Below are positions 3,874-16,111 of a stretch of DNA of 24,266 nucleotides, in pieces. Source of the stretch: a virus (lineage: Duplodnaviria > Caudoviricetes); the IMG/VR virus record IMGVR_UViG_3300020414_000012, positions 1 through 24,266 of that record; one strand, given 5' to 3'. The first letter of the stretch is position 1; the number at the start of each line of letters is the position of its first letter. The notes under the pieces are model-generated. The model was not told where the DNA came from. It was given only the letters and a program-made list of their open reading frames with translations, and did no database searches. Made by a program: the position numbers and the translations under genes.

Positions 3874-4215
3874 TTACGCACTTTTTTCGTCAAATATTTC
3901 TAATACACATACTATTCCTGCTATATCATCAGCAGTTTGTGCTTTCAATTTTAAAGCATCTCCAGATTCTAAAACTATAGTTCCTTTAGCTAAATTATCA
4001 ACAGTTTTTGATGATAGAGATATATGAGCTATTTCATGTTCTGAGTTAGAAGCTGATGAGTCTGTGGTAAATGCTTCTACTTCATTAGCACCAGTATGAA
4101 TATTTGTTACTTGAATAGTTTTAATTAAAGCTGTTCTGTCTGTAGGACAAGTATATACAGTTGTCTTATCTGTCGTTGTCAGATCAAACATTGAATTTTT
4201 ATAAATATTAGCCAT
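3874..4215 (-). CDS. Small beta-rich tail-associated protein
   Basis: 113 aa, MANIYKN...TTVYTCP...ALIKTIQVTN...IVLESGDALK pattern common among small marine phage virion proteins. Confidence 0.55.
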   Translation of the reverse strand: MANIYKNSMFDLTTTDKTTVYTCPTDRTALIKTIQVTNIHTGANEVEAFTTDSSASNSEHEIAHISLSSKTVDNLAKGTIVLESGDALKLKAQTADDIAGIVCVLEIFDEKSA

Positions 4216-4220
4216 AGTTA

Positions 4221-4859
4221 TTATTTTATAAAAGAAGGCAATCCTAACATTGGTCTACCATCAAATTTGTTTTTGTCAGAGTATTTACCATTTAAATGAT
4301 TATAATGCAAAAAGACTTGTCCACATATATTACCTTCAAAAGGTTCTCTCCAATGCTCTAAATCACAACCAGAATACACTAACATATCGCCAACATCAAG
4401 CACCAGTTTATCTCCTTTTGGAGCATCAGGTTTATGTATGTTTTTGTATTCATCTATAACATTATCACTACCAGTTGGATCAATAAATATTGACCATTTA
4501 TCTCCACCTAAATTAAGTGTTGTAGATATTTCACAACTTGGTCTATCTTTATGTCTTTTTAGTATATCGCCTTTTTTATATGCTCTTGCATAAGAATAAG
4601 TTGGTATTAAATCTAGTCCTGTGTGTTCTTTCATTACAGGTAACATTTTTACTAGTAAAGTTTCCATTACAAAGTCTGCATAATGAGAATAAGTATTAGG
4701 TATTTGTTTGTCTTTCCAAGTACCTAATAAACTAGATTCTGCATGAATATTATTTTTATACATAAATTCTACTGCATCTCTTTTTAATAAAAAATAATTT
4801 AAACAAAAATTAGCAAGTTCATAACTAACTGCATTTTTTATAACTTTATATTTAAACAT
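4221..4859 (-). CDS. 2OG-Fe(II) oxygenase-like protein (HxD...H)
   Basis: PTYSYARAYKKGDILKRHKDRPSCEISTTL...GDMLVYSGCDLEHWREPF...QVFLHY; HxD...H facial triad. Confidence 0.8.
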   Translation of the reverse strand: MFKYKVIKNAVSYELANFCLNYFLLKRDAVEFMYKNNIHAESSLLGTWKDKQIPNTYSHYADFVMETLLVKMLPVMKEHTGLDLIPTYSYARAYKKGDILKRHKDRPSCEISTTLNLGGDKWSIFIDPTGSDNVIDEYKNIHKPDAPKGDKLVLDVGDMLVYSGCDLEHWREPFEGNICGQVFLHYNHLNGKYSDKNKFDGRPMLGLPSFIK

Positions 4860-5449
4860 TATACAAACATTCCTTTCTGTAAAAAATTAAACGATACTGA
4901 TATTCTTATGTCATTAGATTCGTTGGGATCAACACAGTGCATTAACCATGATGGAAACATAATACATCTTCCAGTAATAGGTTCATAATGTGTTTCTCTA
5001 AATAATCTTGGAGGCACTTGACCTTCTTTTTGTCTAGGTCTTGACATACAAGCAACTGATCTTGGATCATCTATTTTTAAATGTCCAGAATTTTTAGGTG
5101 CTTTAATATAATATACACCTGACCATAGTGAGTTAGGATGTTGATGAGCTCTATTCATACCACCTGGAGGATTAATGTTTGCCCACATATTACCTAGTAC
5201 AGGTTCACTATCTAAATGTTCTTGTTCATAAATAGTTTTTTGACAAGCATATAACATATCAACTAATTTTTTAAATTGTGGTAAATCAGCCATATTAGTT
5301 GTTGAGTGCCACCCTTGAACATTAGTTCTTGTTATACCTTTATCTTGTTTAGACCAAGCAACAATATCTCTTTCTAATTCTTGATTCAAAGTTGGATGTT
5401 TTATATCTGCAATATAAACAGGTGTTGGAAAATGTAGTTCTCTAATCAT
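4859..5449 (-). CDS. Putative 2OG-Fe(II) oxygenase (TIGR02466 / 2OG-FeII_Oxy_5-like, HxH...H)
   Basis: MWANINPPGGMNRAHQHPNSLWSGVYYIK...IMFPSWLMHCVDPNES..IRISVSFN. Confidence 0.85.
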   Translation of the reverse strand: MIRELHFPTPVYIADIKHPTLNQELERDIVAWSKQDKGITRTNVQGWHSTTNMADLPQFKKLVDMLYACQKTIYEQEHLDSEPVLGNMWANINPPGGMNRAHQHPNSLWSGVYYIKAPKNSGHLKIDDPRSVACMSRPRQKEGQVPPRLFRETHYEPITGRCIMFPSWLMHCVDPNESNDIRISVSFNFLQKGMFV

Positions 5450-6030
5450 TTAAATGGTGTACCTCCAAACCACATTACTAAAGATTTTCTATTACCTCTA
5501 ATAACTGGTTTAACTCTATGTCTTATAAATGATGCAAAAAATACTGCATGACCTTGTTTTATTTTAGCAATTTTACCTTCTGTCATTAATTCTAAATCAC
5601 CACCTTCAAATTCTGATTCTGGAGATAGTAGGCAAGTCATAGATATTTTTCTAACTGGTGGTTCATGCTGACAATTAACATCATTATCTACATGCCATTC
5701 ATAGAATCCTCCTTCTGGATATTCTGTATATTGTGCCATCTCTGTGATAGTCATTCCATCAAAACCAAAATGATTACCATTTGTTTGTTTCATAATTTTT
5801 TCTATGTCTTTATACATATCTGTCATTTTCTTAAATGGAATCCAACTGATATGTGATGTTCTTGTTTTAGTATCTAACACACCACCTTTTATTCCTTGTT
5901 TATTTCCAACATAAGCATCTTGTTTAGGTTCATTTCTTCCAGCTTCTATAATCATTTGACATTGTTTAGGTGTAAATATTGGTGTTGTTGTTTCTACAAT
6001 ATAAGATTTCCATCTAGGTTCTGTTATCAT
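5446..6030 (-). CDS. 2OG-Fe(II) oxygenase, prolyl-4-hydroxylase/PKHD-like
   Basis: QYTEYPEGGFYEWHVD...RKISMTCLLS..EFEGGDLE...VFFASFIRHRVKPVIRGNRKSLVMWF; HxD...H plus RxS 2OG-binding motif. Confidence 0.88.
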   Translation of the reverse strand: MITEPRWKSYIVETTTPIFTPKQCQMIIEAGRNEPKQDAYVGNKQGIKGGVLDTKTRTSHISWIPFKKMTDMYKDIEKIMKQTNGNHFGFDGMTITEMAQYTEYPEGGFYEWHVDNDVNCQHEPPVRKISMTCLLSPESEFEGGDLELMTEGKIAKIKQGHAVFFASFIRHRVKPVIRGNRKSLVMWFGGTPFK

Positions 6031-6677
6031 ACTGCACCTCTGTTTTTTATTGGATCAAATTGCACATCACAGTTTGCAGCAAGTGTTCTTCTAGTTTCAT
6101 TAGTGCCATTAAAAGGATAAACACAATGACGCATATCATAAGGAAATACATAAAAATCTCTAAGATCCATTGGTGGTTGATAATCTATCTTTGCAAACTG
6201 ACCATTACTTGCACCTAATATTTGTAATCTTCCATTCTGTTGTATGTGTTCTGCTGAATATTCTTTACCATAAGTAGATGGTAGTTTTAAAATCATTACA
6301 GATGATAAACCTGTAAACAACATACCTCTATGTATGTGTGCTGGATTATATTCATGTTGTTTCATTTCATTAACCCAAATAGAATTTAAATGTGTATCGT
6401 AATCTCTAATTTTATTAAAAGCTAAATAGTGTTTAAATACAGACATGAAATAATCTGTAACATTTGTAGGTAGCATATTATGATTTTTCATTTTAGATTG
6501 ATCTGCACCATTATAAAATAAAGAATGTTCACTTTCTATTTTACCTACAAGTTGAGTATTAGCAGGTGCTAGATTGTTATAGTTAGATTCATAAATATAA
6601 TTAATAGAATGAAATATATCTAAAGGTACTTGATACTTTAGAATGGATTGACCTAAAAATACAAAATCAAAATTCAT
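6027..6677 (-). CDS. Putative 2OG-Fe(II) oxygenase (HxH...H)
   Basis: SIWVNEMKQHEYNPAHIH...LSSVMILKLP...FYVFPYDMRHCVYPFN..ETRRTLAAN. Confidence 0.8.
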   Translation of the reverse strand: MNFDFVFLGQSILKYQVPLDIFHSINYIYESNYNNLAPANTQLVGKIESEHSLFYNGADQSKMKNHNMLPTNVTDYFMSVFKHYLAFNKIRDYDTHLNSIWVNEMKQHEYNPAHIHRGMLFTGLSSVMILKLPSTYGKEYSAEHIQQNGRLQILGASNGQFAKIDYQPPMDLRDFYVFPYDMRHCVYPFNGTNETRRTLAANCDVQFDPIKNRGAV

Positions 6678-7348
6678 TAAGAATTGTTAGGCAATTCCTC
6701 TTTCTTATCATGTTGTAATTCGCCAGACTTTTTAATTCTTTGTAAAGATTGTAATTGACCCATTACATTAAATACTTCTGATTCAGATGAGTTTGCATTT
6801 AAAGTTTTAGCTTTAGCTGCATATTGTAAACCATAAGATTCTAGTTGATGTTGATTAACATCTTTGTCATTAAATGATCCATCATTAAATTCTTTTTTTA
6901 ATTTAGACCACATTTTAATTTCTCTCATTCTGTGTTTAGCAACTTTTTCCATAGATGCTTTGCCAAATTTAGCTTCGTCTAAATCTATTTGGTATTTAGT
7001 TAATTTATATTCATCTTGTTCAGTATCTATTTTTTTTTCTAACCATTTAATCTTTGCATCATTTCTTCTATAATCAAATGATAAAGTCATAAGGTTGTCC
7101 AAGTAAGATGATTGTTCTCTGACACATTGCCAATACTTAGCAGCTTTTGTAGGATAACGATTGTCTTGCAATACAGAAAATCTAGCTTCTGTTTCTGTTC
7201 TAAACATTTGTTTCTTAGTCCAAGTATCTCTTAATTCTTCAACCATTCCTTTGAAAGAATTTAAATCTTCTTGTTCTAATAAATTGTTTAAATGTGTTTC
7301 TTCTTTTTGTATTAGATCTTTTAAGTCTTTCTTATTTGACATTGACAT
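6677..7348 (-). CDS. Helical/coiled-coil hypothetical protein heading the oxygenase cluster
   Basis: 223 aa, charged and helical, with the motif FRTETEARFSVL...YPTKAAKYWQCVREQ. TAATG overlap with the first oxygenase. Start is either 7348 or 7342. Confidence 0.6.
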   Translation of the reverse strand: MSMSNKKDLKDLIQKEETHLNNLLEQEDLNSFKGMVEELRDTWTKKQMFRTETEARFSVLQDNRYPTKAAKYWQCVREQSSYLDNLMTLSFDYRRNDAKIKWLEKKIDTEQDEYKLTKYQIDLDEAKFGKASMEKVAKHRMREIKMWSKLKKEFNDGSFNDKDVNQHQLESYGLQYAAKAKTLNANSSESEVFNVMGQLQSLQRIKKSGELQHDKKEELPNNS

Positions 7349-7380
7349 ATTGATATACCTTTTAGTTTATTTGTAAAGTA

Positions 7381-8406
7381 TTAAGAAGTTGTAAATGTTC
7401 TAACATCAGTAGAACCTGCACCTGTCCACTCTTCTGTTGCAGTTCTAAGTTCATTCGCTGGGCCTTCTCCTCCAAAAGCTATTGCAGATGTTGAAGTTCC
7501 AGCTCCTGCCATTGCAATATATGCAGGGCCACTTAAATCAGCTTGTTCAGTCCAGCTTGAACCATTCCATAATTCAACATTAACAACTCTCCTATCTGCT
7601 GGAGAATCGTCATATCCTCCAAATATTAATCCTGAAGTATTGTCGGTATATCCAGCTGATCCTCCAAAAGACCTTTCAAAAGCTATATCACCAACTTCAG
7701 TCCAACTAGAACCATTATATAATTCTGTATTTGTAAAATAACTTCCTCCTGGAGCTTGTCCACCACATATTAAGGCAGAAGTTACTATTCCAAATCCTTG
7801 TTGCCCATATCTAGCTGAATTTATGTCAGTTGTTTCAGTCCAAGTTGATCCATTCCATTGTTCTACATTAGTAAAAACTCCAGGACTAGGAAAATCTGCT
7901 CCACCAGAAAATAAAGCAGAAGTATTACTTGCTCCTGCTCCTCCTCCCTGTTGTCTTGCAGTATTCAAATTTGCTACTTCAGTCCAACTACTACCATTCC
8001 AAGAATCAGTTTTTGCTGATTCTGCTGATGGTGTTACTCCGCCAAATGCTAAAGCAGAAGTTTGAGTACCACTTCCTTTTACACCTCTTCTAGCAGTATT
8101 TAAATCTCCAACCTCTGTCCAACTTGTTCCGTCATAAGATTCTGTTAATGCTTGAGCTGCATTAGGAGGAGGGCCAAGATACCCACCAAAGCCTAACGCA
8201 GATGAACTACTTACACCTGCTCCACCCATCATTCTTCTTCCTGTGTTTAAATTACCACCAGTAGCCCATGAACCTACTGTAGTAACAGAAGCACCTTTTA
8301 AAGCACCTGTTGTTGAATTATACCAAACTTGTCCTTCAACAGGATTGCTAGGATCAGATGATCTTGATTCTATATTTGTTCCAATTATTTCTTTGTATGT
8401 TGCCAT
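7381..8406 (-). CDS. Kelch-like six-bladed beta-propeller protein (putative fibre-tip/receptor-binding protein)
   Basis: Six repeats W(T)ExxDLNTAR...GAG...ALxFGG-loop-TExWNGSSW. Start re-assigned to 8406 (MATYKEIIG, 341 aa) because it matches the paralog N-termini and follows the upstream stop as TAATTATG. Confidence 0.75.
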   Translation of the reverse strand: MATYKEIIGTNIESRSSDPSNPVEGQVWYNSTTGALKGASVTTVGSWATGGNLNTGRRMMGGAGVSSSSALGFGGYLGPPPNAAQALTESYDGTSWTEVGDLNTARRGVKGSGTQTSALAFGGVTPSAESAKTDSWNGSSWTEVANLNTARQQGGGAGASNTSALFSGGADFPSPGVFTNVEQWNGSTWTETTDINSARYGQQGFGIVTSALICGGQAPGGSYFTNTELYNGSSWTEVGDIAFERSFGGSAGYTDNTSGLIFGGYDDSPADRRVVNVELWNGSSWTEQADLSGPAYIAMAGAGTSTSAIAFGGEGPANELRTATEEWTGAGSTDVRTFTTS

Positions 8407-8408
8407 AA

Positions 8409-9359
8409 TTAATCTGTATCTATTGTTTGTGTTAAAGGAGAACCTGCTCCTGTCCATTCTTCAGTTGCTGTTGTTGCAGTTGAAATTGCTCCACCAAAAG
8501 CTAATGCGTTTGCTGTTGTACCTGCACCAGCCAGATAATCTCTTGCTGTATTTAAATTATTTGTTTCTGTCCAAGAAGTTCCATTCCATAATTCTGTTGC
8601 ATTTGTTGCTGGTGGAGCATTTCCACCAAATCCTAAAGCATCTGTACTTAAACCAGCTCCTGCCATACCATATCTACCTGCATTTAAATCGGCTACCTCT
8701 GTCCAACTAGAACCATTCCACAGTTCTGTAATTGCTGTTCTTGGTTCTCCACCAAAAGCAAGTGCGGCTGTTTTAGTGCCACATCCTGTTAATGCCGCTC
8801 TACCTGTGTTTAAATCTGCTGTTTCTGCCCAACTAGTTCCATTCCAAGTTTCTGTTTCAGATTTATTACCTGGCCCTCCTCCAAAAGCTAAAACTGAAGT
8901 ATTATCAACACCTGCTCCTCTTAAAGCATATCTTGCAGTATTTAAATCTGCTACCTCACTAAAACTAGTGCCATTATAAGATTCTGTTGCTCCTGTAGTT
9001 GGTGGCCCTTCTCCACCAAATGCAAGTGCAGAAGTTTGAGTTCCAGCTCCTCCTAATTGACTTCTACCAGTATTTAAATCATTAACTTCAGTCCAAGATG
9101 TTCCATCATATTTTTCTGTTATAGCTAGTCCAGTTCTACCACCAATAGCTAAACCAGCTGTATATATACCTGCTCCACCTAATTGAAACCTAGCAGTATT
9201 TAAAGCTCCTCCTGTAGCCCAAGATCCAGATGTAGTTTGACCCTCTAGCTTTAAAGTGTTTGTGGTTGCATTATACCATACTTGACCCTGTACTGGATTA
9301 TCAGGATCAGTAGTATAGCTTACAACCTTTTGACCGACTATGCCTTTATATTCTGACAT
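8409..9359 (-). CDS. Kelch-like six-bladed beta-propeller protein
   Basis: Six repeats as above; N-terminal DPDNPVQGQVWYNATT module. Confidence 0.75.
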   Translation of the reverse strand: MSEYKGIVGQKVVSYTTDPDNPVQGQVWYNATTNTLKLEGQTTSGSWATGGALNTARFQLGGAGIYTAGLAIGGRTGLAITEKYDGTSWTEVNDLNTGRSQLGGAGTQTSALAFGGEGPPTTGATESYNGTSFSEVADLNTARYALRGAGVDNTSVLAFGGGPGNKSETETWNGTSWAETADLNTGRAALTGCGTKTAALAFGGEPRTAITELWNGSSWTEVADLNAGRYGMAGAGLSTDALGFGGNAPPATNATELWNGTSWTETNNLNTARDYLAGAGTTANALAFGGAISTATTATEEWTGAGSPLTQTIDTD

Positions 9360-9366
9360 TTAAAAT

Positions 9367-9687
9367 TTATTCCTCTAATGTTATATCTTGTGGTCTTTCG
9401 CCAATTCTGTCAATTTTTTGTTCGATAGTTTCGCCATCAATAGCATTATCGTTATCCCATGCTGTTTGACTAGCAGTTATTTCTGCATCAACAAGAGCTT
9501 GTGCTTCGTCTTTTGTTTTAACAACACCAGCAACTTTAGAAATCCAAAGATTTGCATGTTTATTGTATGCTGGAATTTGCCAAACATTAGCAGGATAACC
9601 TTTAAAAGTGATTCTCATAGATTCTACATGATCTATAAAACCCTTTCCCCAGTTTTCTGCTACACAGTATTGATATGTTTTTGCCAT
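9367..9687 (-). CDS. Hypothetical protein, possible fibre assembly chaperone/adaptor
   Basis: 106 aa with a strong AGGAGG RBS, located between propeller genes. Confidence 0.5.
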   Translation of the reverse strand: MAKTYQYCVAENWGKGFIDHVESMRITFKGYPANVWQIPAYNKHANLWISKVAGVVKTKDEAQALVDAEITASQTAWDNDNAIDGETIEQKIDRIGERPQDITLEE

Positions 9688-9699
9688 AGTTTTACCTCC

Positions 9700-11532
9700 T
9701 TAATCAGTTAAAGTTTTTACCAAATTTGATGGTTTATTCCATTCTTCTGTTTGTCCGCCAACTGGAGGACTTCCTCCCATAGCTAAAGCTGATGTTGTTA
9801 CTCCATCTCCAGATAAGTCACTTCTAGCTGCATTTAAATCTGTTGTTTCAGTCCAAGTAGCACCATTCCAATCCTCTGTTTTTCCAGTTACAGGTGGAAT
9901 ACCTCCAAAAGCTAAAGCAGCTGTATAAGTGCCTCCACCTGCAAGATTATATCTTGCTGTATTTAGATCTCCAACTTCAGTCCAGGAGCTACCATTCCAT
10001 AATTCTGTTATTGCTTGTGGCCCACCAGAAGGGCCAGGATGAACATAACCACCAAAAGCTATAGCTGCTGTTTGTGTTCCAGCTCCTGATAAAACAAATC
10101 TTGCAGTATTTAAATCTGTTGTTTCTGTCCAACTACTACCATTCCATGATTCTACTAATGCTGAGTTTCTAGGAGAACCAAATGGATCTCCACCAATACC
10201 TAAAATTGCTGTATTAGTTACTCCTGAAGTACCTAAAGATTTTCTACCACTATTTAAATCTGCAACCTCAGTCCAACTACTACCATCCCAAGATTCTGTT
10301 TTTCCTGTTATAGTATTGCCTGGAGGTACAAATCCACCAAAAGCTAATGCTGATGTGTAAATTCCATTACCTGAAATATTTTGTCTAGCAGTATTTAAAT
10401 CACCTACTTCAGTCCAAGTAGTTCCATCATAAGATTCTGTTAATGCTGATAAATTATCTCCTGGAGGAAAGTTTCCTCCAAATGCTAACCCAGCTGAATT
10501 ACTTGCTCCTGCACCTGCCATAGCATATCTTCCAACATTCATATTTGCACCTGTTGACCAAGCACCGATTGGAACACCAGGCCCTGTCCATTCTTCTGTT
10601 GCTGCTGATGTTGGTGGACTTCCACCAAATGCTAATGCGTTTGCTGTTGTACCTGCTCCAGCTAAATATTCTCTTGCTGTACTCATATCAGTTGTTTCAG
10701 TCCAACTAGTTCCATTCCAATCTTCTGTTTTTCCTGTTACTGCTGGACCTGGATTACCAGCAAAAGCTAAAGTAGATGTTGATGTTCCAAAAGATGCACT
10801 AGCTAATTGTTGTCTTGCAGTATTTAAATCTGTTGTTTCTGTCCAAGCACTACCATTCCATGTTTCTGTTGCACCTGTTACTCCACCAGGCCCAGCACCA
10901 CCAAATGCAACTGCTAATGTTGATGTTCCTGCACTTGCAAGTTGTGATCTAGCACTATTTAAATCTCCAACTTCTGTCCAGTTAGATCCATTCCATTGTT
11001 CCACTAATGCTACTCTAGGAGGATCTTGATCTCCTCCAATACATAATGCAGCAGTCGCTATTCCATTTGCTCCTGGAAATCTTCTTTTTTGATTTAAAGA
11101 ATTTACTGTAGTCCAGCTACTACCATCCCAAGATTCTGTAGAAGTTAATGCAACATTACCAGGTAAATTAAATCCTCCAAATCCTAATGCAGAAGTATTA
11201 CTTGCTCCAACACCACCCATGTGTGCTCTTGAAGTATTTAAGTCTGAAACTTCAGTCCAAGTCGCACCATCATAAGATTCTGTTATGTTAGTTTGGGGAT
11301 CTCTCCCTCCAAAAGCTAAAGCTGATGTATAAATTCCAGCTCCTGCAACACCATATCTAGCAGTATTTAAATTACCACCACTAGACCAAGATCCAGATGT
11401 AGTTACATTTGGATATTGATATTTAAAATGTTGATTAGTGCTATCGTACCAAAGCTCACCTTCAACTACACCAGGTTTATCTCCAGCATAGTTGGTAACA
11501 GCAGTTCCAACTGTTTGCTTATAGGTAGCCAT
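9700..11532 (-). CDS. Kelch-like tandem double beta-propeller protein (12 repeats)
   Basis: Twelve repeats in two sets of six joined by EEWTGPGVPIGAW; N-terminal GELWYDST module. Confidence 0.75.
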   Translation of the reverse strand: MATYKQTVGTAVTNYAGDKPGVVEGELWYDSTNQHFKYQYPNVTTSGSWSSGGNLNTARYGVAGAGIYTSALAFGGRDPQTNITESYDGATWTEVSDLNTSRAHMGGVGASNTSALGFGGFNLPGNVALTSTESWDGSSWTTVNSLNQKRRFPGANGIATAALCIGGDQDPPRVALVEQWNGSNWTEVGDLNSARSQLASAGTSTLAVAFGGAGPGGVTGATETWNGSAWTETTDLNTARQQLASASFGTSTSTLAFAGNPGPAVTGKTEDWNGTSWTETTDMSTAREYLAGAGTTANALAFGGSPPTSAATEEWTGPGVPIGAWSTGANMNVGRYAMAGAGASNSAGLAFGGNFPPGDNLSALTESYDGTTWTEVGDLNTARQNISGNGIYTSALAFGGFVPPGNTITGKTESWDGSSWTEVADLNSGRKSLGTSGVTNTAILGIGGDPFGSPRNSALVESWNGSSWTETTDLNTARFVLSGAGTQTAAIAFGGYVHPGPSGGPQAITELWNGSSWTEVGDLNTARYNLAGGGTYTAALAFGGIPPVTGKTEDWNGATWTETTDLNAARSDLSGDGVTTSALAMGGSPPVGGQTEEWNKPSNLVKTLTD

Positions 11533-11534
11533 AA

Positions 11535-14153
11535 TTATTTAACCTTTAACAGCCAACCTTGTGTAGAATCTGTATAGACTAAAGTATTGGCTGACCTTTC
11601 TACTGATACAGTTAAATCATCTGTAGAACCATTTATTTTTTCAGAACCATTAGCTGATATTGTAAATGTATTAGAATCAAAAGTTCCAGCATAATCTATA
11701 AAACTTACAAAATCTCCTAAAGTTCCTGCTGGTAAATTCATTGTAATAACTCCACTTGTAGTGTTTACAAAATAACCTTCACCTGCTGTTGCTGTAAAAG
11801 TAGAAGTTTTAACTGATTGCCATTGTTCTCCACCAGATACTTCGCCAAAAGATAAGTTACCTGATCCATCAGTTTTTAATACTTGATCTGCTGATCCATC
11901 TGCATTTGGAAATTTAATACCATCTAAATTTAATTTACCTGAACCTTTTGGTGTTAATTTTAAATCTATATTTGTATCTCCACCAGTTGCAGATATTTCA
12001 GGTGCATTACCTGTTGCTGCATTAGCAATAGTAAATTCATTAACAGCCGAACCTGTAGCTGTTAAATTAAATAATTCATTTCCATTTGTGTCGTCAATTT
12101 TTGTTCCAATTTTAGGAGAAGTTAAAGTTTTATTTGTGAGTGTATCTGTTGAAACTAAAGATACTAAAGTAGAACTAGCACCAGCTGGTAATAACATTTC
12201 ATTTGTAACAGCAGCAGAGTGAGGTTGAGATTTTATAATTTGACCATGTGAATTAGATTCACAATTTAATTGTATAGCACCAGCATTTGTATTTCCTTTA
12301 ACAGTTACATGACCAGTACCTTTAGCTAATAAATCTAAATCAATATTACTATCACCACCAGTTGATGATAAAGTTGGATTACCACCTGTTGCAGCATTGG
12401 CTACTGTAAATTCATTTACTGCTGAACCTGTTGCTGTTAATTTAGCTAATTCATTTCCATTGGTATCTAAAATAGAAGTATCAATTTTTGGTGTAGTTAA
12501 AGTTTTATTTGTAAAAGTTTGTGTTCCTGTAAGAGTAGCAACTGTTGAATCTATTGATATTGTTCCAGATGATGTAATTGTACCACCATCTATTCCTGTG
12601 CCAGTTGCAATAGATGTAACTGTTCCAACATTAGCTGGTGTAATCTGAGAGTAAGTTATGTTGCTAGATCCTATTGAAGCACTAGAATCTGTTGTGCATA
12701 AAAATATTTTATTATCATTTGCTGTACCTTGATTAACTACAACCATACCACCAGATAATTCAGCTATAGTATCATGTTCAGGATCTCTTGATGCAGCACC
12801 ACTTGATACTGCTAAGTATAATCCATTTTCTGTAGCATCACTTTGATCTTTTACTAAAACTCTATCTCCAGCTACAAGAGTAACACCATCAATACTATCA
12901 CCAGCTTCTAAACCATTCGTTAAATTTACATTTGCTGTAGTAGCACATTCAGCTATAATTCTTGTTCTTAGTCCTGCTACTGCATCATCTACATAAGACT
13001 TAGTTGCAGCATCTGAATTATTTGATGGATTTCCAAGACCAGTTATTGAACCACCAGATATTGAAACACTATCAGATGCTTGAGTTGCAATAGTTCCTAA
13101 TCCTAATGATGTTCTTGCTGTTGATCCTGTTTCTGCTACCCATGTTGAACCACTACCAACAATAAAGTTACCATCTGTTGTAGCAAGATCACCAATTGCA
13201 GTTAAGTTTGCATTTGAAGCACCTTTGGCATCTAGTTGTGTTTGAATATTTGAACTAGCACCATTTAGATAACCAAACTCTGTATTTGAAATTGTACCAT
13301 CATGTATTTTTGTAGCATCAATAGCAGCACTTGCATTTATATCTGCATTAACAATTGCACCATCTGTTATTTTAGCAGAAGTAATTTGTGAGTCAGCTAT
13401 CTTAGCTGTAGTAATTTGTGAGTCTGCAATGTGTATAGTATCTATACTAAGATCAACATAATGTTCAGAGTTAATACTATCATCAGCTATTTTTGTACCA
13501 TCAACTGCATCAGCAGCAATTTTAGCTGTTGTAACATTTGCATCTGTAATTTTAGCAGTAGTAATTTGTGAATCTGCAATATGAGCTGTGTCTATTGAAC
13601 CATCTACATAATGTTCTGAATTAATACTGTCATCTGCAATTTTAGTTCCATTAACTGCATCACCTTGAATTTTTGATGTAGTAACTGCATTATCTCCTAA
13701 TTGTGTTGCACCAATAACTTCACTTGGAATAGATGTATTTGTTTTTGATAAAGCACCTACATAAACATTTGTAATAGCTTCACTAGATAATGAACCTGAA
13801 TCCCATGTTACATTAACAGTTGTATTGGTTGAAAAAGATGATGAACTAATTGTTCCAAAAATTGTTCCTGGTGTACTAGCAATTAATTTAATTCTTCTTC
13901 CTGCATGATAAAAAGAAGTTACATCAACACCAGCAATTGTAAAAGAGGTAGATGATGCGTAAGCAGCTGTGTAAGCACCTGAACCATCTCCATATTCTAC
14001 CCATTGACTGTCATTAAACCACTCTCTAGTATTTTTCATCAATGCTCTAATTGCATTGTTTAAATTAGAAGGTAGCATCCCTTCGGCAGTAGAGATACCA
14101 TTTAAGTCTGTGTTATTTGCTTGTGTTGTTGAATAATCTTTTATACCTGCCAT
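11535..14153 (-). CDS. Long tail fibre protein
   Basis: 872 aa, Thr/Ser/Gly/Ala-rich. N-terminal anchor motif (N..AEGMLPSNLNNAIRALM), ADxxITTAKI 10-aa repeats, DAATKSYVD and GDRVLVKDQ..ENGLY fibre modules, C-terminal GYFVNTTSG..LP..GD...VY.D..GW domain. Confidence 0.85.
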   Translation of the reverse strand: MAGIKDYSTTQANNTDLNGISTAEGMLPSNLNNAIRALMKNTREWFNDSQWVEYGDGSGAYTAAYASSTSFTIAGVDVTSFYHAGRRIKLIASTPGTIFGTISSSSFSTNTTVNVTWDSGSLSSEAITNVYVGALSKTNTSIPSEVIGATQLGDNAVTTSKIQGDAVNGTKIADDSINSEHYVDGSIDTAHIADSQITTAKITDANVTTAKIAADAVDGTKIADDSINSEHYVDLSIDTIHIADSQITTAKIADSQITSAKITDGAIVNADINASAAIDATKIHDGTISNTEFGYLNGASSNIQTQLDAKGASNANLTAIGDLATTDGNFIVGSGSTWVAETGSTARTSLGLGTIATQASDSVSISGGSITGLGNPSNNSDAATKSYVDDAVAGLRTRIIAECATTANVNLTNGLEAGDSIDGVTLVAGDRVLVKDQSDATENGLYLAVSSGAASRDPEHDTIAELSGGMVVVNQGTANDNKIFLCTTDSSASIGSSNITYSQITPANVGTVTSIATGTGIDGGTITSSGTISIDSTVATLTGTQTFTNKTLTTPKIDTSILDTNGNELAKLTATGSAVNEFTVANAATGGNPTLSSTGGDSNIDLDLLAKGTGHVTVKGNTNAGAIQLNCESNSHGQIIKSQPHSAAVTNEMLLPAGASSTLVSLVSTDTLTNKTLTSPKIGTKIDDTNGNELFNLTATGSAVNEFTIANAATGNAPEISATGGDTNIDLKLTPKGSGKLNLDGIKFPNADGSADQVLKTDGSGNLSFGEVSGGEQWQSVKTSTFTATAGEGYFVNTTSGVITMNLPAGTLGDFVSFIDYAGTFDSNTFTISANGSEKINGSTDDLTVSVERSANTLVYTDSTQGWLLKVK

Positions 14154-14303
14154 TTAATCTCCTAAGAACCAAGAAAATGCTTTATTATTTTCTTGATTTT
14201 TTTCATTTACTAATGTGTTAATAGCTTCTTCAATTTGTCTTTGAAAAAACTCTTGTGTTTCAAAACTGTATCTAACATTATCTATATCAGTTTTATCTGT
14301 CAT
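14154..14303 (-). CDS. 49-aa hypothetical protein (not in ORF track)
   Basis: MTDKTDIDNVRYSFETQEFFQRQIEEAINTLVNEKNQENNKAFSWFLGD*. ATGA overlap with the nozzle stop; its TAA abuts the fibre ATG and its 3' end supplies the fibre's AGGAG RBS. Confidence 0.75.
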   Translation of the reverse strand: MTDKTDIDNVRYSFETQEFFQRQIEEAINTLVNEKNQENNKAFSWFLGD

Positions 14304-16111
14304 CTCAACCCTGATCTTGATGCAACTATATCAATTCCTTGTGCATCTTTCCAAGCACCTCCGCTTGGTATTTTAACATTAACTTTAACATATCTTCCAG
14401 ATTGTCTTACTGGATTTATACCTGTAGAATTCATGCTTGAAGAAGTTGATTCTGTAGCAATATCAGCAAGTCTATCTCTAGTTTTTAAAGTAACTGTAGC
14501 AGTTGCATCTACAATAGGTCTTACACCTATTATAGACGATCTTGTTCCTGGAAACAACTCTAATTCTGTAGTTTCTATTTCTCCTTCATTTTCTGTTCCT
14601 GAAAAAATAGCAGCTTTGTAATCACTATCAATAGCACCTAATAATAATTGTCCTCCATTCCAAAAATCAGTATCTAATGAAATATTAATGTTATCTAAAT
14701 TTTCTGAAATAATGTCCATTAACTCAACTGTATAAGCTCCAACAAATTGTGAAAATATTGTACTAGCATTAGCATTTGCTGTTGACCATTTTTGAGTAGC
14801 ATAATTATAAATTAAAACTTTATCACAAATACCAGTAGTATTAGATGTGTCAGCAGAAGATGGATATAACCAAATTGCTAATTGATTAAAAGGATCTGTA
14901 GCTGCAACTATTCTATCAGAAAATGCTTTATTTAAATCTAAATCAAAAAATCTATTTACTTTTTCTGCACCTATTGCAGTAACTTGATCTCCATTAACTT
15001 CAAAAAATCCGTCATCCGCATAAAAAAAGACTCTACGATTATCTTGGCAAACAGTTCTTCCATATACTGCTCCTCTATTTGGTGAAATAACTGATAGACG
15101 GAATACTGTTGCACCACCGACATAATCCATTCTAATTATTTGATTTTGCCTAAATACATAACCAATCTCTCCAGAAGTTATATGAACTATTTGTCCACCT
15201 GATCCTGGTAGGTCTTGCAAGTCTGATTGTTTAGTTCCAGCTGCCCAAGTTGTAATATCATTTATTCCTGACCATTGTATTCTATTAGTTGCACCAACAT
15301 GATTACCTGTTACTAAAAAATCTCTAATTATACCTGAAACTTTAAATGTAGGTACAGTACCTGATGTTCCAATAGTTGAAAGATCTTCAAAAGAAGATGA
15401 TGTTCCCATTAAATAATATTGAGGTGCATCTACACCATTACTAGCTATGATATAATTTCCAAATTGTGTAAATGTAACATAATCAGTTGCATCTCCAGTC
15501 AAAGGAGTTCCACCATAAAAATTTGTAGTTGTTAATCTTACAGTATCAGACGAAACATTTGTTAAATTATTATTTCCAACTGTTGCTCTTGTTACAGTTA
15601 CAACTGCACCTGATACACTTGCTGAAAAATCTGCATGACCATTAATAGTATTTTTTAAATTTGTAGCAGTAGTGTCGTTGTTTGTTTGAACTTGAAATTC
15701 ATTTGTAGATGGTGAACCAGTAACAGATGTAAAGACAACAGTTGTACCATCATTTTTTTTTAAAGTAATAGTTTTACTTGCACCAATATTTGCATAGTCT
15801 GAAACTGTAATTGTACAAGTTGCAAAAGCTGTACTTAAAACTTTACCTCTTGCTCCTCTTTCTGAAAAAGCACCACCAGTCAATTCATAAATAGTTTCTT
15901 GTGTTGCTACAAAATTAAATACAGTATTAGAATTATCTCTAAAAGAACCTGCACCTCTTGAATCTTTTGTAGTTGTATTTGTAGAATAATTAACTAATGA
16001 AGGAAATCTTTTATAAGAATTTAAAGCATAATAAACATTGTTAGCTACATTAGCACCAGGATTGTTATGCTCTGGTTGGTCAGGAAGCCATTCTCCAAAA
16101 GGTATTTGCAT
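14300..16111 (-). CDS. Tail nozzle / tail tubular (DNA-stabilisation) protein
   Basis: 603 aa, MQIPFGEWLPDQP start, beta-propeller-like strands (RIQWSGIND..W, VFFYADDGFF, LIYNY....WS); follows the adaptor. Confidence 0.7.
   Translation of the reverse strand: MQIPFGEWLPDQPEHNNPGANVANNVYYALNSYKRFPSLVNYSTNTTTKDSRGAGSFRDNSNTVFNFVATQETIYELTGGAFSERGARGKVLSTAFATCTITVSDYANIGASKTITLKKNDGTTVVFTSVTGSPSTNEFQVQTNNDTTATNLKNTINGHADFSASVSGAVVTVTRATVGNNNLTNVSSDTVRLTTTNFYGGTPLTGDATDYVTFTQFGNYIIASNGVDAPQYYLMGTSSSFEDLSTIGTSGTVPTFKVSGIIRDFLVTGNHVGATNRIQWSGINDITTWAAGTKQSDLQDLPGSGGQIVHITSGEIGYVFRQNQIIRMDYVGGATVFRLSVISPNRGAVYGRTVCQDNRRVFFYADDGFFEVNGDQVTAIGAEKVNRFFDLDLNKAFSDRIVAATDPFNQLAIWLYPSSADTSNTTGICDKVLIYNYATQKWSTANANASTIFSQFVGAYTVELMDIISENLDNINISLDTDFWNGGQLLLGAIDSDYKAAIFSGTENEGEIETTELELFPGTRSSIIGVRPIVDATATVTLKTRDRLADIATESTSSSMNSTGINPVRQSGRYVKVNVKIPSGGAWKDAQGIDIVASRSGLR

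Follow-up and report, generated by a model that had tools for sequence, protein, structure and literature searches.

A ten-gene cassette at positions 4221-14153 of the viral DNA stretch IMGVR_UViG_3300020414_000012 (called the window here, 24,266 bases in its whole length) appears to allow a tailed phage to modify its own adhesins. The cassette encodes an anchor tail fibre, three Kelch-type propellers, a protein of 106 amino acids (aa), a helical protein (HEL), and four putative 2-oxoglutarate- and iron(II)-dependent (2OG-Fe(II)) oxygenases, OX216, OX194, OX196, and OX212. Judged from sequence comparisons, the oxygenases probably hydroxylate the phage's propellers, which are themselves likely receptor-binding. 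Loop prolines are the likely main target and HEL is likely an adaptor or chaperone. That the enzymes act on adhesins at all, whatever the residue, can be proposed with good confidence. The first-pass annotation of this DNA had suggested a dedicated pathway that modifies the receptor-binding proteins. The link between enzymes and adhesins and the proline controls speak for such a pathway. The suggestion is only partly supported: the hydroxylated residue is a predicted one, glycine-rich adhesins are served too, and propellers and enzymes are often apart in HMO-2011-type phages.

Oxygenases and proline-rich adhesins

The variable loop after Gly-Gly lines the ligand face in Kelch proteins. Among 353 de-duplicated relatives of the window's propellers, proline accounts for 13.6% of the residues in the blade loops and 1.9% elsewhere, which agrees with the Pro-rich loops that had been noticed earlier. 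At least one proline is present in 81% of the 2010 loops parsed from these relatives, and Pro-Pro is present in 26%. Proline is enriched 7.3-fold in the loops and the next residue 1.8-fold. The repeats are also rich in Trp and Asn.

Oxygenase presence was explored in a neutral set of 70 loci that were picked by the flanking GNAT-like gene and hand-sorted from hidden Markov model labels; several are near duplicates. Oxygenases were found in 13/13 loci with a propeller or a proline-rich, glycine-rich adhesin. None were found in the 35 loci with other adhesins (LamG, C1q-like, S74-chaperone fibres, and unnamed families). Another 22 loci could not be classed because of their short length; 10 of these end within an oxygenase block. 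A co-occurrence check on propellers and oxygenases had been proposed at the outset, and its outcome strongly favours a functional link between enzyme and adhesin.

The second adhesin type consists of glycine-rich fibres with a TPPxxPPQG motif, which are unrelated in fold to the propellers. This allele carries distant versions of OX194, OX196, and OX212 (25-57% identity). It is present with oxygenases in the cultured phages HTVC023P, HTVC033P, and 023Pt_psg01, and in a reduced form in HTVC008M. Pro-Pro occurs 5.4 times per 1000 aa in the propellers, 5.1 times in the glycine-rich adhesins, and 0-0.8 times in the proteins of oxygenase-free alleles. There are also natural controls within the glycine-rich type. 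The whole cassette of locus L048 encodes two fibres of the same build; their domain contains 0.7% Pro and lacks the motif, and the locus is without an oxygenase. In L481 a single fibre at 4.0% Pro is paired with a single OX194-type enzyme. The remaining glycine-rich loci have 6-12% Pro with two to four enzymes, and in four contigs the sequence stops short of the enzyme site. Adhesin proline content matches oxygenase presence.

The glycine-rich cassette itself contains two to four TPPxxPPQG fibres, a small partner protein, and three oxygenases (L053:2435-9577; HTVC023P gp59-67; HTVC033P gp58-64). Its glycine-rich fibres are gp59-62 in HTVC023P and gp62 and gp64 in HTVC033P. It also encodes an oxygenase-fold-like protein whose metal ligands are seemingly gone (L053:7031-7582). 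Three other loci (L011, L012, and L022) have very long S74-chaperone fibre alleles, in which the place of the oxygenases of other alleles is taken by a gene with weak likeness to GT9 (E=0.0065). In L022 this gene encodes 293 aa (L022:8454-9332). The L022 contig joins an HTVC023P-type head/adaptor region to window-type 113-aa and GNAT-like genes (L022:1-10400; 77-80% identity) and is likely a chimera or a recombinant.

HEL and its exchangeable enzymes

The helical protein had been treated as a bystander in the first-pass annotation. It is instead linked to the propellers more tightly than any other gene. HEL follows the last propeller in 52/55 informative viral loci that were picked by propeller (72 fetched, 17 too short). 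A propeller lies ahead of HEL in 71 of the 76 informative metagenome loci picked by HEL (80 fetched) and in 34/39 informative loci picked by OX212 (80 fetched).

When GTDB genomes were scanned with the propeller profile, 79 loci were obtained. Two have the full cassette. In about 70 the propellers are cellular, and within 10 kb there is no HEL and none of these oxygenases. On two phage-like contigs, L486 and L488, distant propellers adjoin a HEL that is fused to a family-2 glycosyltransferase (GT2). L486 carries a tail-sheath gene. PF13640 had no match in the genomes of L486 or L488, both of which may be incomplete. The HEL part of the fusion was matched by 81 proteins, and 80 of these contain the transferase part. 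One apparent chimera was found when the HEL profile was searched against longer proteins (519-2000 aa). In L199, HEL is fused to a sulfotransferase, which is a single case and a possible assembly error.

The composition of the propellers differs along with the enzyme. Oxygenase-linked propellers have 10.8% loop Pro and 26% Pro-Pro loops (91 loci), and cellular propellers have 4.3% loop Pro (22 loci). In the HEL-GT2-linked propellers loop Pro is 3.4%, none of the 17 loops (2 loci) has Pro-Pro, and serine is abundant (16% vs 9.7%). HEL stays with the propellers while the enzyme is swapped, and the propeller make-up shifts with the enzyme. This is the best argument for enzymes that act on the propellers. 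HEL is likely a propeller adaptor or chaperone, which would bind the propellers.

The model of HEL is a long all-helical coiled-coil hairpin. A profile search found no solved relative, and the model matched generic coiled-coil hairpins (best Z 9.8, about 99 residues) and uncharacterized phage proteins only. An Atlas look-up returned only unnamed viral clusters, all under 0.9. Syn9 gp43 was considered as a relative and was rejected. Complex prediction for the 316-aa propeller with HEL (score 0.14, mark 0.32) gave no answer and counts neither way.

The HEL-GT2 fusions (L486:8426-9928, L488:11784-13061, and P0272-P0352) occur in phage-like contigs that were binned into unrelated genomes. They lie beside serine-rich Kelch propellers, one of which has long poly-serine tracts. 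The fusion and the serine-rich propeller together are likely a virion glycosylation system. A GT9-GT1 fusion gene is also found near the HEL-GT2 fusion in L486. At L625:7355-12151 in G009, about ten short genes with a repeated 'ICL.AVK.DG..L.YV..QT' pattern adjoin the propeller-HEL-glycosyltransferase block. One protein of 356 aa, P0151, has Kelch repeats fused straight to HEL; this is a single case and possibly a frameshift.

A mobile tail module

All four oxygenases are located downstream of HEL in 65/65 de-duplicated loci that have 4.2 kb of DNA after HEL. Additional genes are inserted in some of these loci: 27 have a fifth oxygenase, 18 a sulfotransferase, and 6 a ParB-N-like gene. The ParB-N-like gene (107-144 aa) lies between OX196 and OX212 (L121:6914-7240 and five other loci).

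Apart from the window's own type, at least three phage backbones carry the block. It was found in HTVC106P-type, HTVC023P-type, and HMO-2011-type (L412) backbones, and in loci with a J-type central fibre. In L214 the cassette's neighbours are presumably T4-like neck genes. Gene order is fixed and stop and start codons overlap across the backbones. Compared with the window, the backbone adaptor and nozzle are 20-30% identical, the propellers 45-60%, and HEL and the oxygenases mostly 70-90%. The block is an exchangeable, mobile tail module that is inherited as one unit across unrelated phage backbones. Mantel correlations among HEL, the 106-aa protein, and the oxygenases ranged from r 0.45 to 0.66 (80 loci). 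These values were not counted as co-evolution because linkage alone yields such correlations.

The four oxygenases

Four distinct 2OG-Fe(II) oxygenases had been proposed for the block. All four are distinct and look intact in their sequences. The HxD/E...H metal triad of the 2OG-Fe(II) dioxygenase superfamily is present, and invariant, in OX194 and OX212. OX196 and OX216, which have His-x-His...His in place of HxD and a conserved Arg, are putative members and are above the PF13759 cut-off. Three of the four (OX216, OX194, and OX196) match Pfam 2OG families above the cut-off.

In OX194, residues H113, D115, H171, R181, and S183 are invariant (n=23 sequences). Its profile matches the PKHD protein 3dkq (E=3e-14) and the prolyl 4-hydroxylases 5c5t (E=5e-11, profile positions 19-166) and 2jig (E=4e-4). 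OX194 is the only one of the four that resembles the prolyl 4-hydroxylase/PKHD clade over the catalytic domain (HxD...H, R-x-S), and it would be the best candidate prolyl hydroxylase.

In OX212, residues H103, D105, H169, and R171 are invariant (n=20 sequences). Relatives were found in 154 phage records, including Syn9 gp54, HTVC023P, HTVC033P, and HTVC008M. In the available part of PMC2938197, Syn9 gp54 is classed as a 2OG dioxygenase. OX212 matches only PHROG families that are labelled 'ferrochelatase', and it has no Pfam match. A ferrochelatase was rejected: no chelatase was among the PDB matches to E=5 by sequence or profile, and HxD...H is present instead. Four PHROG families match 2OG oxygenases here under labels that look wrong: 2954 and 3531 as 'ferrochelatase', 274 and 2297 as 'DNA endonuclease'. 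Comparing the OX212 and OX194 profiles gave no significant match.

OX216 has invariant H114, H116, H184, R196, and R197 (n=23 sequences), and OX196 has invariant H102, H104, and H171 (n=30 sequences). OX196 matches the uncharacterized structures 3bvc and 2rg4 (E<1e-18). PDB profile searches gave no solved relative for OX216 or OX212. AlkB and TET/JBP were not among the Pfam or PDB matches of any of the four enzymes, which proves little since OX212 and OX216 lack a solved relative.

Proposed mechanism

The propellers would be made late in infection along with the anchor fibre, as secondary receptor-binding proteins. Their N-terminal knob of about 45 aa would dock on the C-terminal domain of the anchor fibre with the help of the 106-aa protein. 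HEL would hold or present propeller chains to the tailoring enzymes, a role suggested because it is fused to a glycosyltransferase and a sulfotransferase elsewhere. With O2, Fe(II), and 2-oxoglutarate, OX194 would add hydroxyl groups to prolines of xPP, xPG, and similar motifs. OX216, OX196, and OX212 may take other sequence contexts, ring positions, or residues. Once modified, the loops would either constitute or stabilize the face that attaches to the host surface. Of the possible purposes of the hydroxyls, tuning of glycan binding on the host surface is favoured.

A wider reading is offered tentatively. Marine phage receptor-binding proteins may generally be tailored through an adaptor, with HEL recognizing Kelch adhesins and delivering interchangeable enzymes. 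In pelagiphages these would be prolyl and other hydroxylases; distant phages would use a glycosyltransferase, and occasionally the enzyme would be a sulfotransferase. The abundant phage 2OG-Fe(II) arrays, long regarded as auxiliary metabolic genes, might then be largely virion hydroxylases that make hydroxyproline-rich adhesins.

Evidence against and alternative explanations

A number of observations weigh against hydroxylation of loop prolines by these enzymes. By allele type, the neutral set reduces to 2/2 vs 0/6 (p=0.036), with few independent types and with kin that share alleles. The loci of the linkage searches were ranked by likeness to window genes, which favours the same cassette, so these searches indicate that linkage is tight, not how frequent it is. 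OX216 is missing in three shorter loci (L017, L018, and L202). Proline is common in loops for structural reasons. The best solved relatives of OX194 are PKHD proteins, and a literature search for the substrate of PiuC gave none. Four enzyme families also exceed the need of one chemistry, two of them have His-x-His ligands, and OX212 and OX216 are without solved relatives.

HMO-2011-type phages, which are HTVC033P-like, are an exception. Their whole propeller cassettes often lack adjacent enzymes (L073, L096/L097/L227, L235, and L251), and the propellers keep 10.2% loop Pro. HEL and the four oxygenases are found at the end of the early arm in 7/54 informative HMO-2011-type loci (80 fetched), and propellers are found in 11/36 informative loci picked by nozzle (counted by hand); these frequencies differ with p=0.06. 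Both sites show the two divergence classes of linked loci. The remote module is missing in long contigs that cover both sites and have other alleles (G001, G005, G006, and HTVC033P). This fits a relocation within one genome. A contig that spans both sites with the propeller allele was searched for and none was found, so action in trans is unproven.

Syn9 and HTVC008M also fit poorly. The ten-oxygenase array of Syn9 adjoins glycine-rich fibres at about 2% Pro and two tryptophan halogenases, so proline cannot account for every phage array. HTVC008M has five oxygenases and one fibre at 4% Pro. Within the cassette's relatives, the presence of a sulfotransferase shows no association with loop Pro (p=0.61) and a weak one with Ser+Thr (p=0.015, uncorrected). 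A scheme in which prolines are hydroxylated and then sulfated is thus unsupported. The window's gene list and Pfam matches do not include a sulfotransferase.

Three other explanations were weighed. It is rather unlikely that the adhesins are tailored mainly at residues other than proline, through a multi-step modification of Trp, Asn/Asp, Ser/Thr, or Tyr, or with a small group attached afterwards. Four unrelated families per cassette, the occasional fifth oxygenase and ParB-N-like gene, the His-x-His ligands of two enzymes, and the Trp- and Asn-rich repeats would all suit such a chemistry. The halogenases and proline-poor fibres of Syn9 would suit it too, as would the sulfotransferase's weak tie to Ser+Thr and lack of a tie to proline. 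However, proline is the only residue that is strongly enriched in the loops, and it differs most between oxygenase-linked and oxygenase-free homologues. The sole oxygenase in the minimal module of L481 is of the OX194 type.

It is unlikely that the enzymes change the host surface or a host metabolite instead, whether the allele alters its own receptor and blocks rival phages or a secondary metabolite is made. There are precedents in the available parts of published work: host O-chain modification was proposed for glycosyltransferases in host-recognition islands of pelagimyophages (PMC7029224), and secondary-metabolite synthesis for the oxygenase arrays of cyanophages (PMC2938197, PMC7824862). 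The sulfotransferase in 18/65 loci is consistent with a host target, as is the conservation of the enzymes (70-90% identical) while the propellers vary (45-60%). A host target does not predict the match with proline in L048, L481, L486, and L488, and it leaves unexplained why HEL stays with the propellers when its enzyme partner changes. In addition, the enzyme set is common to two adhesin types of unrelated fold, whose only shared trait is proline-rich loops.

Very improbable is the absence of any functional link, with auxiliary or nucleic-acid-modifying oxygenases riding in a recombination hot spot beside the tail genes: many alleles but few independent types occur in the slot, which is a variable island, and the HEL-oxygenase block may sit far from tail genes in HMO-2011-type phages, but the order is fixed with overlapping stop and start codons across backbones, the same families lie beside a second, unrelated proline-rich adhesin and in none of 35 loci with other adhesins, and, although this proves little for OX212 and OX216, the Pfam families AlkB and TET/JBP had no match.

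The window and its genes

Pfam and PHROG profiles identify the window as the structural arm of a small podophage, with terminase, SU10-type portal, capsid, adaptor, and nozzle genes. Its capsid protein is 81.3% identical to that of Pelagibacter phage HTVC106P, and the remaining 308 matching records are all below 60%. By sequence, the window belongs to an HTVC106P-like pelagiphage. Because of this capsid kinship, and by kinship only, SAR11 is the likely host. HTVC106P has the same slot borders as the window, different slot genes, and no oxygenase, and 4221-14153 is therefore one allele of a variable tail island. A tblastn search of the available GenBank phage records with the propeller and HEL gave no match, so a cultured phage carrying the window's propeller allele was not found. 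The first-pass annotation had described a co-oriented block of about 10 kb with a fibre, three Kelch-like propellers, a 106-aa gene, a helical protein, and four oxygenases, and all ten genes were found where it had placed them (Table 1). Gaps within the block range from -4 to 32 bp, and the gap on the nozzle side is 146 bp.

Table 1. Genes of the cassette and of its borders in the window.
Feature	Position	Strand	Remarks
Nozzle/tail protein	14300..16111	-	phrog_3287; kept in relatives with other alleles; upstream slot border, outside the cassette
Anchor tail fibre, 872 aa	11535-14153	-	PHROG tail-fibre matches; 1.7% Pro
Double Kelch-type propeller, 610 aa, 2 x 6 blades	9700-11532	-	12 repeats; phrog_27227 E=9e-162; Kelch_6 weak
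106-aa protein	9367-9687	-	always among propellers
Single six-bladed Kelch-type propeller, 316 aa	8409-9359	-	AlphaFold2 mean predicted local distance difference test (pLDDT) 94.7, predicted template modelling score (pTM) 0.89
Third propeller, single six-bladed Kelch-type, 341 aa	7381-8406	-	phrog_27227 E=3e-81
HEL, helical protein, 223 aa	6677-7348	-	model pLDDT 93.5
OX216, PF13759-type oxygenase, 216 aa	6027-6677	-	Pfam E=5e-8, above cut-off
OX194, PKHD/prolyl-4-hydroxylase-like 2OG-Fe(II) oxygenase, 194 aa	5446-6030	-	PF13640 E=4e-15
OX196, PF13759-type oxygenase, 196 aa	4859-5449	-	Pfam E=7e-29
OX212, Syn9-gp54-family oxygenase, 212 aa	4221-4859	-	phrog_2954 E=1e-46
113-aa small gene	3874..4215	-	phrog_1276; in relatives whatever the allele; downstream slot border, outside the cassette

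Residues 776-862 of the anchor fibre match phrog_958, 'baseplate wedge subunit' (E=2.7e-8), a domain which we take to be T4 gp10-like and to serve as a branch point. This C-terminal domain of about 95 aa also sits ahead of the glycine-rich adhesins, and it is likely the branch point for secondary receptor-binding proteins. The double propeller is likely one of these.

Kelch beta-propellers are marked by six repeats of about 44-50 aa, with Gly-Gly and a conserved Trp, and by blades of four strands. The window's propellers agree with this pattern and have six repeats each, or 12 in the 610-aa protein. A profile of 112 relatives matches KLHL3 (E=1e-28), and the Pfam Kelch_6 match is below the cut-off for the window's propellers. 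The AlphaFold2 model of the 316-aa propeller shows the repeating strand pattern. All propellers share the N-terminal knob. As called mechanically, the open reading frame of the third propeller begins at 8457, which gives a 49-bp overlap with its neighbour. A start that matches the family consensus is found at 8406, 2 bp past the preceding stop, and this is most likely the true start.

The 106-aa protein had no match in Pfam or PHROG, and in Atlas its matches were limited to unnamed viral clusters below 0.9. XkdW or tail-assembly-chaperone proteins of about 100 aa are encoded in other alleles of the slot. By analogy, the 106-aa protein is likely a fibre assembly chaperone.

Comparison with known systems

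A viral prolyl hydroxylase has a precedent in chlorovirus PBCV-1, whose prolyl 4-hydroxylase reportedly acts on proline-rich peptides of viral proteins (Eriksson 1999, cited in PMC9301287). PDB 5c5t, which is matched by the OX194 profile, is presumably this enzyme. Both systems are encoded by viruses; PBCV-1 is a eukaryotic virus with a single enzyme, whereas the phage cassette has four enzymes of predicted activity and a partner protein. The phage propellers share their repeat pattern and predicted fold with the six-bladed Kelch propellers of KLHL2/3/12 and KEAP1. They differ from these in a short N-terminal knob, a single or tandem arrangement, a location in a tail island, and variable loops that are loaded with proline.

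A published likeness is found in bacterial operons. In the available part of PMC2938197, protein hydroxylation and sulfation are predicted for operons of 2OG-Fe(II) dioxygenases, a sulfotransferase, and a tail-collar or glycine-rich collagen-like protein. As in those operons, which are also a prediction, the cassette has several dioxygenases, at times with a sulfotransferase, encoded beside a fibre-like or glycine-rich putative substrate. Unlike them, it is located in phage tail islands, has Kelch propellers as likely substrates and a helical partner, and gives no support for sulfation: a sulfotransferase is absent from the window, present in 18/65 relatives, and not tied to loop proline. The oxygenase families (PF13759, PKHD/prolyl-4-hydroxylase-like, and Syn9-gp54) also differ from those that the available part of PMC2938197 gives for the operons.

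Genes of Syn9 and HTVC008M match the OX194, OX196, and OX212 profiles, and the arrays of Syn9 and of HTVC023P-type phages are likewise located behind tail-fibre genes. Published readings of these arrays, as far as the available texts go, are metabolic or concern secondary metabolites (PMC2938197, PMC9599517). The available text of PMC9599517 reports the 2OG-Fe(II) oxygenase beside a 'ferrochelatase' in HTVC023P-type pelagiphages as partner auxiliary metabolic genes, and the words 'kelch' and 'propeller' are absent from it. No relative of HEL was found in the array regions of these cultured phages.

Modified virions are also known in mycobacteriophages. In the parts of these sources that were available, the capsid and tail tube are described as glycosylated (Freeman 2023, cited in PMC12619734), and a tail protein as carrying host-dependent methylation that is needed for adsorption, with a methyltransferase that is the host's (PMC13445384). 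As proposed for the cassette, such modification touches the particle surface or adsorption; the chemistry and the targets differ. The word 'hydroxylation' is absent from the available text of PMC13445384. Among the top-ranked papers of searches in a library with few subscription journals, none connects the enzymes with tail adhesins of the Kelch or glycine-rich kind or describes HEL; the supplements of PMC2938197 and PMC9599517 may list such neighbourhoods.

Significance

Few 'auxiliary metabolic genes' of marine phages are commoner than those for 2OG-Fe(II) oxygenases and prolyl-hydroxylase-like proteins. Their use by viruses is called cryptic in the available part of PMC9301287. The question can be tested now because HTVC023P and HTVC033P, which are cultured on Pelagibacter HTCC1062, have the glycine-rich version with the same enzyme families. 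If the proposal is true, enzymes that have been filed as metabolic helpers would have a concrete job, and many metabolic claims from viromes would need to be read again. HEL would stand for a new family of adaptors in virion tailoring. The most abundant phages of the ocean would then have a host range that hinges on oxygen, iron, and 2-oxoglutarate, by way of protein modification.

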